A model generated the notes under the pieces. That model was given only the letters and a program-made list of their open reading frames with translations, was not told the DNA's origin and made no database searches. DNA of 64,000 nt. It comes from an uncultured archaeon. Its GTDB lineage: Archaea > Iainarchaeota > Iainarchaeia > Iainarchaeales > GCA-2688035. The stretch spans positions 1 through 64,000 of the forward strand of contig CAYHBD010000008.1 in assembly GCA_964354805.1 (NCBI GenBank), given 5' to 3'. A program made the translations under genes and the position numbers. Each line of letters opens with the position of its first letter. Position 1 is the first letter of the stretch. This document shows positions 3,363 to 15,182 of this stretch, piece by piece.

Positions 3363-4010
3363 CTATCGCGCGCCCTTTTTGCCGGTAATTGTAAGCGTTC
3401 TCGAAAACGCTGTTTCGTCTTTGTAGGTCACTGTAATTGTTCCAACGCCGCCGGGGGTGTATTTAATGTTTGAAAACCTCATTTCATCGCCTGGCCCCAC
3501 ATCAAGAGAGCTCGTTGTAAAGGTGCTACAGACTTTGTCGTTTAATTTTGATTGTGTGCTACATTGACCACCTGCGGGATCACTAAAACTAGGATTTAAA
3601 GAAAAACCAGTAACAGTGATTGTGCCGCCGCTGGCATTCTTTAAGGCAACGCTTACATTGTTTGCTGCATCAATGTTGCCGCCTCCTACAAGTGGGAACT
3701 CTGTTGGCTGGGAGGAATTGAAAACAGGGGTTTCAATCGGGCCGCCAAAAAGAAGCACAACTACACCAACTATGGTGGCAACCAGCACAAGCGCCCAGCT
3801 GTAAGTGAGCAGATATTCCAGGCTGATTTGGGCTCTGCAATCGCTTTGCGATTGCACTTTTTCCCATCCTGCAAAAGCTTCGCTTTTGCGGGACCTCGCA
3901 AAACCTTCGGTTTTGCAAGGAGGCTTTTTTGCAACAGCAAAAAAGGCTTTGCCGTTAGGCTCTTTTTCCCAAGGCTTTATTGCAACAGCAAAAAAGGCTT
4001 TTTTCATCAT
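3363..4010 (-). CDS. Type IV pilin paralog, signal peptide extended by repeat insertions
   Basis: ...CRA|QISLEYLLTYSWAL; mature part homologous to neighbours (FNSSQPT, LKNASGGTITVT, RTLTITG). Confidence 0.85.
   Translation of the reverse strand: MMKKAFFAVAIKPWEKEPNGKAFFAVAKKPPCKTEGFARSRKSEAFAGWEKVQSQSDCRAQISLEYLLTYSWALVLVATIVGVVVLLFGGPIETPVFNSSQPTEFPLVGGGNIDAANNVSVALKNASGGTITVTGFSLNPSFSDPAGGQCSTQSKLNDKVCSTFTTSSLDVGPGDEMRFSNIKYTPGGVGTITVTYKDETAFSRTLTITGKKGAR
3836..4004. repeat. Composite REP-like hairpin cluster inside pilin signal peptide
   Basis: Six consecutive hairpins including two AGGCTTT..GCAACAGC..AAAGGC units. Confidence 0.85.
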
Positions 4011-4082
4011 AGCAAATATAATAGAGAGTGCTTGTATTTAAATTTTTTCAATGCAGGAATCCGCGCCCCTGAACAAAAATAC

Positions 4083-4679
4083 TTACCCTTTTCCTTTTCT
4101 TCCGGTAATTGTAAGTGTTCTACTAAAGTTGTGGACGTCTGTGTAATCCATTGTGATTGTCCCACTGCCAGTACCGCCATAGGTGATGCTTTCAAATTTT
4201 AGGTCGCCACCTGAAATCACCTGAATTGCGGGAGAAATAGTGGCCGCAGAAGTGAATAGGCTCCCATTAAATTTACATGCAGAAGCAGGAGCTGGTCCGC
4301 ATCCAGAGAAAGTTCCTGAAACAGTGATTTTTGTAACAGTGATTTTGCCCCCGGTCACATTTTTTACTATAACGCTGGCTTTGTTTGAGCCATCGATTGT
4401 GCCGCCCATTACAGGGAACTTTGTTGATTGACTGCTGTTAAATACAGGGGCATCAGCCGGTGTTCCAACAATCATCACAAACACTCCAACTATGGTGGCA
4501 ACCAATACAAGCGCCCAGCCGTAAGTGAGCAGATACTCCAAACCAGCCTGAGCTCTCGCCGTAAGGCGTTTTTTCCCAATGGTTTTTTGCAACAGTAAAA
4601 AAGGCTTTGCCGAAGGCACTTTTTCCCAAGGCTTTTTTCCCAAAGGAAAAAAGGCTTTTGGATTCATTTGGAAAACCAA
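4083..4679 (-). CDS. Type IV pilin paralog, signal peptide extended by repeat insertions
   Basis: ...ARA|QAGLEYLLTYGWAL; start TTG 4679 or ATG 4667. Confidence 0.85.
   Translation of the reverse strand: MVFQMNPKAFFPLGKKPWEKVPSAKPFLLLQKTIGKKRLTARAQAGLEYLLTYGWALVLVATIVGVFVMIVGTPADAPVFNSSQSTKFPVMGGTIDGSNKASVIVKNVTGGKITVTKITVSGTFSGCGPAPASACKFNGSLFTSAATISPAIQVISGGDLKFESITYGGTGSGTITMDYTDVHNFSRTLTITGRKGKG
4557..4659. repeat. REP-like hairpin cluster (two units) inside pilin signal peptide
   Basis: TTTTTCCCAATGGTTTTTTGCAACAGTAAAAAAGGC, TGCCGAAGGCA spacer hairpin, TTTTTCCCAAGGCTTTTTTCCCAAAGGAAAAAAGGC. Confidence 0.85.
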
Positions 4680-4788
4680 TTAGATATAGTACGACGCGGT
4701 ATTTAATTCTTTTTTTTACTCAAAAATGGGAATTTGTTCTGGGGCAAAGAATAAAAACCCTGAAAGCGTTTATTGCTTTGGTTTTGTG

Positions 4789-12802: not shown

Positions 12803-13843
12803 ATGAACCAACGCGGTGTTTTTTTTGCTTTTATGATTTTTTTGCTGGTGATGTCAGTGATTGCTTTGAACAGCACAACCAGCAGGGCTGTCAGTGAAAG
12901 CGAGCAGCGCCTGGTGCAGCACAGTGCCTTTGATGTTGTAAACAATTCTTTCAATAACTTGTTTGAAGAGGTTGTGAGCCTGAAAAAAGAGGGCTTTGCA
13001 AAAGAGGTGCAGCAGAGGGGCCTGCCGTTCAAATACGGCCTGAATAATAATAAAATAAATTTAAGCCAAACTTTGCCCCAAAGGCCAAGTGTTCTGAAAG
13101 GCTACATTGATTCATTGAACATTTACTCGATTTTTTTAAACACAAAGGGCCAAGCAGGCAACATTCAGCTTAATACAAAGGTTGCTGCCCAAAACAGCGA
13201 ATGGGGCGGCAGCGAATGGCCGCTTTTTCCTGATTTGAATTACCTGATTCTGCCCCAATGCCTTTTGCTTGATGCCAATGCTGATGGAAATATGCTGCTG
13301 ATGGGCGGCGTGCTGTGGAGTGAATTGTGCACCCAGCCCTTTGATTTCGCTGACCTGAATGCAATTGACGCAAACATTTCCTTCAACTCGGGACCATACA
13401 CTGTTGCTGCATTAAGCTGCGGCAGTGAATTCTTTGACCCGGCAAACCCGCCGGACAACTGCCGAAAAGACGCCTTCAACCCTTCAAGCAGCGACCCCTA
13501 CGTTGCGGTTGGGTTGGTGGAAAAATGCGCGCCTGAAGGCTGTAAGGTGATTGCAGGCGGAACACCGCCTTTTGCAACAAAAACAATTGCAGCACACTTT
13601 GACCCTGCAACAACAAACGGCACTGTTTCAATCCAGGCAACAGCCAACTATGCGGTTAAAATAAAAATCGGGAGGCTGGATGCTGCTGACAATTTCCCAA
13701 TCCACATTGAAAACCAGTTCATTGCTGAACCAATTGACGTTGACCTGAATGTGGCATTCGACCAGAGAATTGAAATGTTTTACTTCTCAGGCTTTGACAT
13801 AAATGTAAGCAAACAAAACTTCCAAATAATCAGGAGCACTTGA
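12803..13843 (+). CDS. Minor pilin A5
   Basis: MNQRG|VFFAFMIFLL; paralog of N-terminal part of 20641-22437. Confidence 0.8.
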   Translation: MNQRGVFFAFMIFLLVMSVIALNSTTSRAVSESEQRLVQHSAFDVVNNSFNNLFEEVVSLKKEGFAKEVQQRGLPFKYGLNNNKINLSQTLPQRPSVLKGYIDSLNIYSIFLNTKGQAGNIQLNTKVAAQNSEWGGSEWPLFPDLNYLILPQCLLLDANADGNMLLMGGVLWSELCTQPFDFADLNAIDANISFNSGPYTVAALSCGSEFFDPANPPDNCRKDAFNPSSSDPYVAVGLVEKCAPEGCKVIAGGTPPFATKTIAAHFDPATTNGTVSIQATANYAVKIKIGRLDAADNFPIHIENQFIAEPIDVDLNVAFDQRIEMFYFSGFDINVSKQNFQIIRST

Positions 13844-13993
13844 AAGAACCAAAAAGGAGGATCTAATCAGAGAAAAAAAAGTAGTTTTATTGCAAAAAAG
13901 TTTTTTGAATGAAATGGAAAAAAAATTAATGCAAAAGGGGGAAAGCGCTTGAAACACAAGATTTTAATTAAAGAAAGTAATTATTATAGCGGA

Positions 13994-14650
13994 ATGAAAG
14001 CAAAAAATTGCCCAACATTTTTCTTTTCCCAACAGCCTTTTAACAAAAGGCTGGCGAAAAAACAGGGAAATTTTCCCCAAGGCTTTTCTTTTCTTAAAAG
14101 AAAAGGCTTTGCCCAGGTTGCAATAGAGCACCTGACAGTGACAGCAGCCATCCTCGCAATGGTCACAATAGCGTTCGCTTTCGGCTTCGTGACATTCGAC
14201 CAAAACATCAAAATAGCGAAAGCAAGAGACGCCCTAACCGCCTTAACCAGCACAGCAAACGAAATTTATACCCTGGGCAGGGGAAACGTGCGCTTTGTTG
14301 ATGTGAGCTTCCCAGCTGGAATGAAAGACATGACAATAAAGCATGCTTGCTGCAGAAACCCAAATAACAATCCATGTACAATTAAAGAAATAGTTGATAC
14401 TGAAAATAGCTGTGCCAATCCAACGCTCCCATTGCCGCCGAGCTGGGAGGAACATGGTGAAGTGGAATTCAGTTTTATTGAAATAACTGTCAGCCTGCTT
14501 GGCGGCGACACCGTGATTTCAAGGGAATCAAAGGCAAAACTGGTTTTGGCTAACTTTCCACCAGAAAACGAAGCAGCCGGCGGTCCCCCTTACCCTATCA
14601 GAGTTAGCTGGACTGATGATGGTGAAAAAATTAAGTTGCAGAGGGTGTAA
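13994..14650 (+). CDS. Minor pilin B1, signal peptide extended by repeat insertion
   Basis: ...KRKGFA|QVAIEHL; DQNIKI, ITVSLLGGD shared with A1. Confidence 0.8.
   Translation: MKAKNCPTFFFSQQPFNKRLAKKQGNFPQGFSFLKRKGFAQVAIEHLTVTAAILAMVTIAFAFGFVTFDQNIKIAKARDALTALTSTANEIYTLGRGNVRFVDVSFPAGMKDMTIKHACCRNPNNNPCTIKEIVDTENSCANPTLPLPPSWEEHGEVEFSFIEITVSLLGGDTVISRESKAKLVLANFPPENEAAGGPPYPIRVSWTDDGEKIKLQRV
14024..14110. repeat. REP-like hairpin cluster in B1 signal peptide
   Basis: TTTTCCCCAAGGCTTTTCTTTTCTTAAAAGAAAAGGCTTT plus an upstream variant unit. Confidence 0.75.
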
Positions 14651-15182
14651 AAAATTGTTTTCTGAAAAAACCTTTTTTCCTTCGGAAAGAGGTCAAGCGA
14701 AGCAATTTCCCTGGGCTTTTGCAACAGCAAAAGGCCAAGTTTTGCGAAGCAAAACCCTTTTCCCTGGGCTTTTTCGTAACAGCGAAAAAGGCCAGCTAAG
14801 CGCTGAAATGATTGGAATTTCGGCGGTAATTATGATTCTTTTCCTGATAGTTGTCTTAATAGTTTGGCAGAGGGGGCTTTTCACAACCCTCATTGGAAAC
14901 ATTAACCAGAACACGCAGCTGTGCAACAGGCTTTCAAAAATAATTGCAGACTTCAACTCAAACCCTGGATACAGCGAAACAATGCTTGAACTGGAAGCAA
15001 AAGTCAAGATAGAGCCGCACTCGATTACAGTAAACTCTGATGGCTGCCCGAACTGCCAGTACTGCTACTACAGCGGGGCGGTTAACCCTGCACCGAATGC
15101 AGCTCTGCCATTGGTGTTAGATAAGGGGGAATACCTCATAGAAACAACTGGCGAGGGAGTCAAATTCACGCTGCAAACATAG
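14616..15182 (+). CDS. Minor pilin B2, signal peptide extended by repeat insertion
   Basis: ...SEKG|QLSAEMIG + hydrophobic helix; NTQLCN matches A2 NTIQCN. Confidence 0.8.
   Translation: MMVKKLSCRGCKKLFSEKTFFPSERGQAKQFPWAFATAKGQVLRSKTLFPGLFRNSEKGQLSAEMIGISAVIMILFLIVVLIVWQRGLFTTLIGNINQNTQLCNRLSKIIADFNSNPGYSETMLELEAKVKIEPHSITVNSDGCPNCQYCYYSGAVNPAPNAALPLVLDKGEYLIETTGEGVKFTLQT
14665..14796. repeat. REP-like hairpin cluster in B2 signal peptide
   Basis: Two TTTCCCTGGGCTTTT...AAAAGGCCA units with GTTTTGCGAAGCAAAAC spacer hairpin. Confidence 0.85.

Follow-up and report, generated by a model that had tools for sequence, protein, structure and literature searches.

Within a stretch of 64,000 nucleotides (nt) in the genome of a small DPANN archaeon (Iainarchaeota/Diapherotrites), two groups of pilin-like genes are located between 2.7 and 16.6 kb, and four of these genes have long N-terminal leaders that are encoded largely by copies of a small hairpin repeat. 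The stretch, referred to here as the window, comprises positions 1–64,000 of contig C8; C7, C16, C25, C30, C47 and similar labels also denote contigs of this genome, which amounts to 1.38 Mb in 49 contigs and is 88.5% complete. Genes were called with a simple hexamer caller built for this analysis. One of the related strains used for comparison, here termed the JGI strain, is known from a syntenic metagenome contig that is 88–95% identical to the window at the nucleotide level. Rfam and tRNA scans of the 64-kb window gave no matches. The pilin-like genes with long leaders, and the paralogs with short ones, are listed below, with leader lengths in amino acids (aa).

3363–4010, minus strand: A2 pilin-like gene; 60-aa leader at 3831–4010, with the Gln +1 codon at 3828–3830
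4083–4667, minus strand: A3 pilin-like gene; 39-aa leader at 4551–4667 from ATG 4667 (43 aa if TTG 4679 is used); holds a 102-nt in-frame insert
13994–14650, plus strand: B1 pilin-like gene; 40-aa leader at 13994–14113 with two antisense units and no further in-frame start codon
14655–15182, plus strand: B2 pilin-like gene; leader to 14792 with three units; 46 aa long with the TTG 14655 start and 59 aa with ATG 14616
2697–3242, minus strand: A1 paralog with an uninserted 8-aa leader
7336–7896, plus strand: B1 paralog with an uninserted 6-aa leader
7967–8365, plus strand: B2 paralog with an uninserted 6-aa leader
36932–37363, minus strand: short-leader paralog, within the 5–8 aa range of the four paralogs

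For B2, the probable start is TTG 14655, 5 nt past the B1 stop codon, while the longest open reading frame (ORF) runs from ATG 14616. A first-pass annotation of this DNA had described four pilin genes with leaders of about 40–60 aa made of stacked hairpins, alongside paralogs with leaders of 5–8 aa. Both descriptions hold: the leaders have 60, 39, 40, and 46–59 aa and are made of stacked hairpins, and each of the four paralogs that were checked has a leader within the range given.

The leaders of the window genes end in Arg-Ala, Phe-Ala, or Lys-Gly, and are followed by Gln, an acidic residue at +5, and a hydrophobic helix of ∼20 residues. The pattern of Gly or Ala directly before Gln, with Glu or Asp near +5 and a hydrophobic stretch, is found in these four genes and in 20 others in the genome. 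This set of 24 class III-like genes was obtained from a motif scan, minus three evident false positives and plus one gene added by eye. The class III N-terminus is conserved in more than 30 relatives. Furthermore, the genome encodes three A24 prepilin peptidases (PF01478; C16:6559-6855, C16:79636-80001, and C9:160160-160468), one of which lies beside pilin genes on C16, and six T2SSE ATPases (PF00437), one of which is in the window at 26414–26920. A search of ten proteins of the locus against Pfam and NCBIfam gave no pilin model above cut-off, the best match being UpsA for B2 (E = 8e-4). The class III assignment is therefore based on the N-terminal motif, its conservation in relatives, and the presence of A24 peptidases and T2SSE ATPases in the genome, with no match to a family model.

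In studied systems, class III leaders are 6–26 aa long, and those of type IVb reach about 30 (PMC4471445). Leaders of uninserted paralogs and orthologs of the genes described here have 3–17 aa, and nine genes that carry inserts depart from the short-leader form (6–26 aa), with leaders of 21–89 aa. The inserted leaders are net positive, with charges from +5 to +12, and this fits the positive-inside rule as stated in PMC4471445.

A palindromic repeat in pilin leaders

The repeat unit is ∼40–60 nt long and consists of AAGCC, a T-rich stem, a loop, an A-rich stem, and GCC, usually followed by TTGGGAAA and then by a second small hairpin. It is palindromic, present in many copies, and has no coding gene of its own. 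The stem sequences vary among copies yet remain paired, a pattern of co-variation. This hairpin is the commonest repeat of the genome, and its core is the most frequent 12-mer, with 60 copies. A strict scan of the genome identified 151 hairpins of all stem types, compared with 12 when the same scan was run on the reversed sequence as a control. The family with a T-rich stem accounts for 103 of the 151; 60 of these are intergenic, eight lie in tRNA introns, and 35 fall inside longest ORFs. A two-unit intergenic array found by the strict scan at 7035–7130 on the minus strand provides a non-coding reference copy.

Sense copies of the unit end in AAAGCC, which reads Lys-Ala, and antisense copies end in AAAGGC, which reads Lys-Gly, confirming an early observation that the ends of the element coincide with these codons. 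Stop triplets are scarce within it, at 0.8–1.6 per copy over six frames compared with ∼5 in shuffled sequences, and 15 of the 60 intergenic copies are stop-free in all frames. An ORF caller therefore runs through the element nearly automatically, such that an open frame alone is no evidence of translation. Each unit also adds a run of five to seven T residues. The genome-wide density of runs of at least six T is lowest on the sense strand of genes (0.88 per kb), higher on their antisense strand (2.6 per kb), and highest between genes (4.5 per kb); these values are uncontrolled for amino-acid composition. Their scarcity on the sense strand is compatible with avoidance of oligo-T terminators, and could also be caused by composition.

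Within the leaders of the window genes, strict hairpins are found at 3922–3947, 3973–3998, 4630–4655, 14081–14107, 14714–14735, and 14767–14792. The predicted RNA fold of the A2 leader has an energy of −76.2 kcal/mol (z = −5.9), and that of the B2 leader −53.9 kcal/mol (z = −3.7). The inserts are positioned at the −1/+1 junction or no more than two codons from it, and remnants of the old leader stand before them. In B2, each of the three units ends in Arg-Gly-Gln or Lys-Gly-Gln, and the threefold motif (RGQ, KGQ, KGQ) that the first-pass annotation had pointed out is indeed present. The details of the A2 leader and the TATA-like boxes of these genes are as follows.

3945–3995, minus strand: first element unit of A2, 51 nt, behind the first five codons; also in the JGI strain with one mismatch; its strict hairpin is at 3973–3998
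3831–3944, minus strand: further stacked hairpins of A2, 114 nt or 38 codons, absent from the JGI strain; the fold shows four more hairpins
4034–4042, minus strand: A2 TATA-like box, beginning 32 nt before ATG 4010
3267–3275, minus strand: A1 TATA-like box, beginning 33 nt before the ATG at 3240–3242
4700–4706, minus strand: A3 TATA-like box
13962–13973, plus strand: B1 TATA-like box

The segment at 13949–13993, which immediately precedes the B1 ATG, is shared between strains in conserved form, and gene callers read it as 15 extra residues. It is read here as a promoter, since it coincides with the TATA-like box and a promoter-proximal AT-rich motif; by way of this segment, the B1 leader may be longer still.

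Across the whole genome, a hairpin is associated with nine of the 24 class III genes, compared with 64 of the 1358 remaining called genes (Fisher test: p = 1.4e-6, with an odds ratio of 12), which bears out the expectation that the repeat would be enriched in class III leaders. In this scoring, a hairpin was counted for a class III gene when it lay no more than 250 nt before Gln +1, and for any other gene when it lay within 250 nt on either side of the start of the longest ORF. The nine inserted genes are A2, A3, B1, and B2 together with C16:78976, C16:107083, C30:20106, C30:22001, and C47:16487. In relation to sequence length, nine loci are found in roughly 0.45 kb of ancestral leader and 54 in 165.5 kb of intergenic DNA, a difference in density of ∼60-fold. 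A peptide that is discarded cannot be more tolerant of insertion than non-coding DNA, and so tolerance must be supplemented by a site preference or by some benefit. The proposal that insertions accumulate where the encoded peptide is discarded is thus upheld in part: leaders are enriched, but tolerance alone is insufficient to explain a density so far above that of intergenic DNA, and only two Sec signal peptides were seen to be hit.

The orientation of the copies supports a second part of that proposal, namely a target preference for Lys-Ala and Lys-Gly codons. Sense copies are found in genes whose uninserted relatives end in Lys or Arg followed by Ala, and antisense copies in genes with Lys or Arg followed by Gly. 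Copies antisense to the gene are found in B1, in B2, and on C16 and C30, and antisense copies occur in five of the nine inserted genes. Outside the pilins, an insert in the gene for ELP3 is flanked by a 12-nt direct repeat that is equal to the element's own 5′ arm. We infer that integration is guided by microhomology to the element junction, which would also account for the stacking of units.

Strain variation and the start of translation

Related strains provide examples of the same sites in empty or half-filled form. The A3 ortholog of the JGI strain has a 5-aa leader and a promoter that is identical over about 60 nt, and this genome has an additional 102 nt at that position. The A2 ortholog of the JGI strain contains one 51-nt unit, where this genome has the same unit plus 114 nt; in a third strain the leader is 5 aa long. 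Metagenome orthologs of A2 have leaders of either 5 aa or 22 aa. For B1, orthologs from seven assemblies carry zero, one, or (in this genome) two units behind the same first codons. B2 is long both in this genome and in the JGI strain, with two of its units differing by +6 and −6 nt and with stems that have changed yet are complementary. All of the length differences between strains, and all insert lengths, are multiples of three, and both the frame and the start codon are kept across strains that are ∼10% diverged. Such maintenance of frame and start codon, in nine genes and between strains, indicates that the pilins are probably still produced. In over 30 related genomes, some 60 pilin genes were found with a short leader and no hairpin insert; among the sampled genomes, colonization of leaders is specific to this lineage.

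Start contexts throughout the genome fall into two classes, one with a TATA-like box 28–32 or 38–40 nt before the start and another with a Shine–Dalgarno (SD)-like motif at −14 to −10. The spacing in the first class suggests leaderless or near-leaderless mRNAs. In all nine inserted genes, an upstream in-frame ATG or TTG has the promoter or SD spacing seen in uninserted paralogs, and the inserts lie downstream of it. For example, uninserted A1 and inserted A2 have the same box at nearly equal distances from the ATG (−33 and −32, respectively), the short-leader gene C47a and the long-leader gene C47b share a box at −38, and GGTG-like SD motifs precede the upstream ATG of genes with Lys-Gly junctions. 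B1 and C16:107083 lack any further ATG, GTG, or TTG in frame, and in the two C30 genes the only alternative start is 32–49 codons upstream of the cut site, within the array. Taken together, the nine leaders amount to 1254 nt, in which the pilin frame is free of stops and the other two frames contain 14 and 7, an observation that is consistent with translation rather than decisive.

The first-pass annotation had itself raised the possibility that the hairpins lie in untranslated regions (UTRs). The findings point the other way: the old start is upstream of the inserts in nine of nine genes, two genes are without an alternative, and the orthologs with empty sites share the ATG. We think that the inserted leaders are coding; from the sequence, placement of the hairpins in UTRs fails for four genes and may apply to the remaining five.

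Explanations for the long leaders

The probable explanation for these observations, and the one we favour, is that a selfish palindromic repeat has inserted repeatedly and in frame into class III leaders at the cleavage site, the discarded leader being a favoured landing place. The element is a non-autonomous palindromic repeat that has entered the few codons encoding a class III leader. Sense copies bring Lys-Ala and antisense copies Lys-Gly, so that the hydrophobic helix is always immediately preceded by Lys/Arg-Ala or Lys-Gly, followed by Gln. A similar junction is rebuilt by every new unit, hence the stacking. We expect the mRNA to begin at the old promoter and the protein at the old ATG; the ribosome would then read through the hairpins and produce a basic leader of 21–89 residues that faces the cytoplasm. 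One of the three A24 peptidases would then remove the leader and leave the mature pilin unchanged. Enrichment would result from two effects acting together: tolerance, in that the peptide is discarded, and a strong insertion preference for A-rich sequence plus GCC or GGC, which resembles the element's own junction.

A more far-reaching version, which we put forward as a tentative and rather doubtful addition, is that the element is adapted to niches excised by the host, namely leaders cut by a peptidase and introns cut by an endonuclease. It is prompted by the ends of the element, which encode Lys-Ala or Lys-Gly in either orientation, as well as by the lack of stops in all frames, the basic nature of the peptide, and an insertion that rebuilds its target. 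The number of units, which varies between strains (0, 1, 3, and up to 6 or more), might then also set, in a heritable way, how much of each individual pilin variant is made by a DPANN cell that lives attached to its host.

Several findings weigh against repeated insertion into cleaved leaders. The −2 residue of B1 is Phe rather than Lys or Arg, and leaders of 40–89 aa are beyond the tested peptidase substrates, judged by the range in PMC4471445. Five element-rich relatives, with 16–143 copies of the element 14-mer, have no leader insert in ∼35 pilin genes. The paralogs are not independent of each other, which weakens the Fisher test. The element is poor in stops and comes in with a fixed phase, which may in itself account for some of the open-frame signal. 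Finally, five of the nine genes (A2, A3, B2, C47b, and C16:78976) have a GTG or TTG in frame, 6–17 codons ahead of Gln +1.

These internal codons are what would be expected if the hairpins were located in 5′ UTRs, with translation starting at the GTG or TTG just before the cleavage site and the long leaders being artefacts of ORF extension. Such artefacts would be favoured by an element that is stop-poor in all six frames, and the element does occupy true intergenic or 5′ regions, as in the array at 7035–7130. This explanation is nevertheless unlikely. It leaves B1 and C16:107083 with no start codon to use and the C30 genes with one that is itself inside the array. The internal GTG and TTG codons are not preceded by a clear SD motif of the GGTG or GGAGG type, and A2 has only a weak AGGA ∼11 nt upstream. 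Furthermore, the A-type genes have promoter spacing of the leaderless type with respect to the old ATG, orthologs with empty sites begin with the same ATG, and insert lengths that are multiples of three would be unneeded in a UTR.

It is also conceivable, if quite unlikely, that the inserts silence or attenuate the pilin genes through 5′ hairpins and oligo-T termination, and are kept because pilins are redundant or because unit number serves as an expression switch. The stacked hairpins in the leaders are very stable, each unit contributes its T5–7 run, and the sense strand of genes has threefold fewer runs of at least six T than the antisense strand and fivefold fewer than intergenic DNA. Strains differ in the number of units, and pilin families are multi-copy in this genome. 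The maintenance of frame and start codon in nine genes and across strains that are ∼10% diverged speaks against silencing, as do mature pilin parts that are free of frameshifts and stops. The ratio of non-synonymous to synonymous substitution rates (dN/dS) is 0.26–0.39 in pairs with and without inserts alike, with dS saturated (at least 1.2) and therefore holding no information on the time since insertion.

Removal of the inserts from the mRNA in the manner of tRNA introns, which would restore the short ancestral leader, is suggested by strict sense copies in seven tRNA introns and by look-alike hairpins in others, but is very unlikely: in tRNAs the element is the intron body only and a tRNA-specific 3′ segment completes the splice motif, the copies in B1 and B2 and on C16 and C30 run against the direction of their genes, and preservation of frame would be needless for sequence that is spliced out. 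A scan for the bulge-helix-bulge structure (a 4-bp helix between two 3-nt bulges, with a further helix on either side), which is of low specificity (11 of 26 tRNA introns recovered, with 10–31 chance hits per region), detected none at the boundaries of the pilin inserts. This argues weakly against the inserts being archaeal bulge-helix-bulge introns.

In-frame selfish palindromic repeats are already known; the examples described here are in an archaeon and are concentrated on cleaved leaders. A literature search found no paper on repeat insertion in pilin or signal-peptide leaders, and class III leaders of up to 89 aa are, to our knowledge, the longest known. If repeated insertion into cleaved leaders is correct, the long leaders offer a natural experiment on the tolerance of archaeal prepilin peptidases and of membrane targeting. 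They would also provide a testable rule for the survival of selfish DNA in a compact genome, in which it persists in sequence that is removed either post-transcriptionally, as in tRNA introns, or post-translationally, as in signal peptides. The natural alleles with 0, 1, and 3 units form a ready-made series for asking whether 5′ hairpins and T-runs tune archaeal gene expression. There is also a warning for annotation: a third of this organism's pilin genes would escape pilin finders that require a cleavage site close to the N-terminus, and stop-poor repeats inflate ORFs.

Other copies of the element and comparison with known systems

Introns were identified by ARAGORN in 26 of the 44 tRNA genes, with lengths of up to 161 nt. 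Strict copies of the element, amounting to eight hairpins and all in sense orientation, are present in the introns of seven of these genes (C7:10605-10851, C7:9878-10008, C10:18690-18872, C10:31779-31997, C28:18050-18206, C30:64785-64905, and C42:62588-62715). In each, the 5′ body of the intron is made up of the element, whereas its 3′ part is specific to the tRNA. Look-alike hairpins occur in several further tRNA introns, such as that of C35:82119-82296.

Copies are also found in genes for other types of protein. The Sec-type signal peptide encoded by C25:14927-16852 is 54 aa long, both here and in the JGI strain, and contains ∼30 element-encoded residues in its n-region, compared with ordinary signal peptides of ∼20–25 residues and no insert in ∼20 orthologs. 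A second case with a Sec-like signal peptide is C16:23332-25125. In comparison with PDB 6iaz, ELP3 (C16:62953-64638) contains 15 additional residues encoded by an in-frame copy, and a second copy is located near its N-terminus. Another in-frame copy is located at the C-terminal end of the homology to isoleucyl-tRNA synthetase (IleRS).

Several candidates for the enzyme that mobilizes the element were considered. Two genes for IS200-like Y1 transposases are present, at C35:614-967 on the minus strand and C13:1382-1729 on the plus strand; their flanking hairpins are GC-rich and unrelated to the element, and they were rejected as its partner. A search of the genome for TnpB found none. A stand-alone GIY-YIG protein of 94 aa (C45:15412-15696, plus strand) could not be tied to the element either: its gene is not flanked by the element and shows no clear link with it across relatives, occurring in 17 of the 27 that have the element and in 14 of the 33 that lack it. 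Identity as a miniature inverted-repeat transposable element (MITE) was likewise set aside: no transposon with matching ends was found, and the repeats that flank the copies vary (GCC/GGCC, 12 nt, 19 nt) with no fixed target duplication.

The element is similar in some respects to several known systems. Fujishima et al., in 2010, reportedly described transposed tRNA introns in Thermoproteales, where, as here, one sequence family occupies many tRNA introns of a genome. The family described here differs in that it is also intergenic and, in either orientation, coding, and in that no splice motif was found at the boundaries of the pilin inserts.

Rickettsia palindromic elements (RPEs) are in-frame palindromic repeats in protein genes of Rickettsia (Ogata et al. 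2000, reviewed in PMC10969869). Like them, the archaeal element is short, palindromic, non-autonomous, and multi-copy; it is found in frame in protein genes, where it is read as peptide, and it is also found in RNA genes and intergenic DNA. The host of this element is an archaeon rather than a bacterium, and its unit is 40–60 nt compared with about 100–150 nt for RPEs. Furthermore, this element is concentrated at the leader cleavage site and in tRNA introns, whereas RPEs are mainly inside mature protein domains. The relationship to RPEs is proposed as an analogy, with no claim of family membership.

Prepilins of the type IVb/Flp type also have a long, basic, hydrophilic leader that is removed by a prepilin peptidase at the cytoplasmic face, as is predicted for the cleavage here. 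In type IVb/Flp, however, a leader of 15–30 aa is a trait of the family (PMC4471445), whereas the leaders described here consist of recent repeat DNA, with 0, 1, or 3 units depending on the strain and lengths of up to 89 aa. MITEs and REP/BIME sequences (repetitive extragenic palindromes and bacterial interspersed mosaic elements; PMC10969869) share with the archaeal repeat a small hairpin structure, intergenic enrichment, frequent arrays, and polymorphism between strains. The differences are that no partner transposase was found in this genome and that the footprints here take the form of long direct repeats or of microhomology, such as the 12 nt in ELP3, with no short target duplication of fixed length. 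A further parallel is with Ssn GIY-YIG proteins and their NTS/SRM repeats (PMC11893778), as this genome also has hundreds of small hairpins together with a small GIY-YIG protein. The gene for that protein is, in contrast, not flanked by the element, and its presence tracks the element weakly across relatives.

Within the window, copies of the element are also located in the following genes.

2165–2208, minus strand: in-frame copy in a loop of a 494-aa membrane protein (ORF 1162–2646); net +33 nt compared with the JGI strain, which has none
38990–39017: in-frame copy in coaE (ORF 38883–39497, minus strand)
24868–24890: antisense copy in a low-complexity 958-aa protein (ORF 22717–25593, plus strand)
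49842–49863: copy in a 444-aa ORF (48886–50220, plus strand), which may be a single gene or a pair of genes joined through the open repeat

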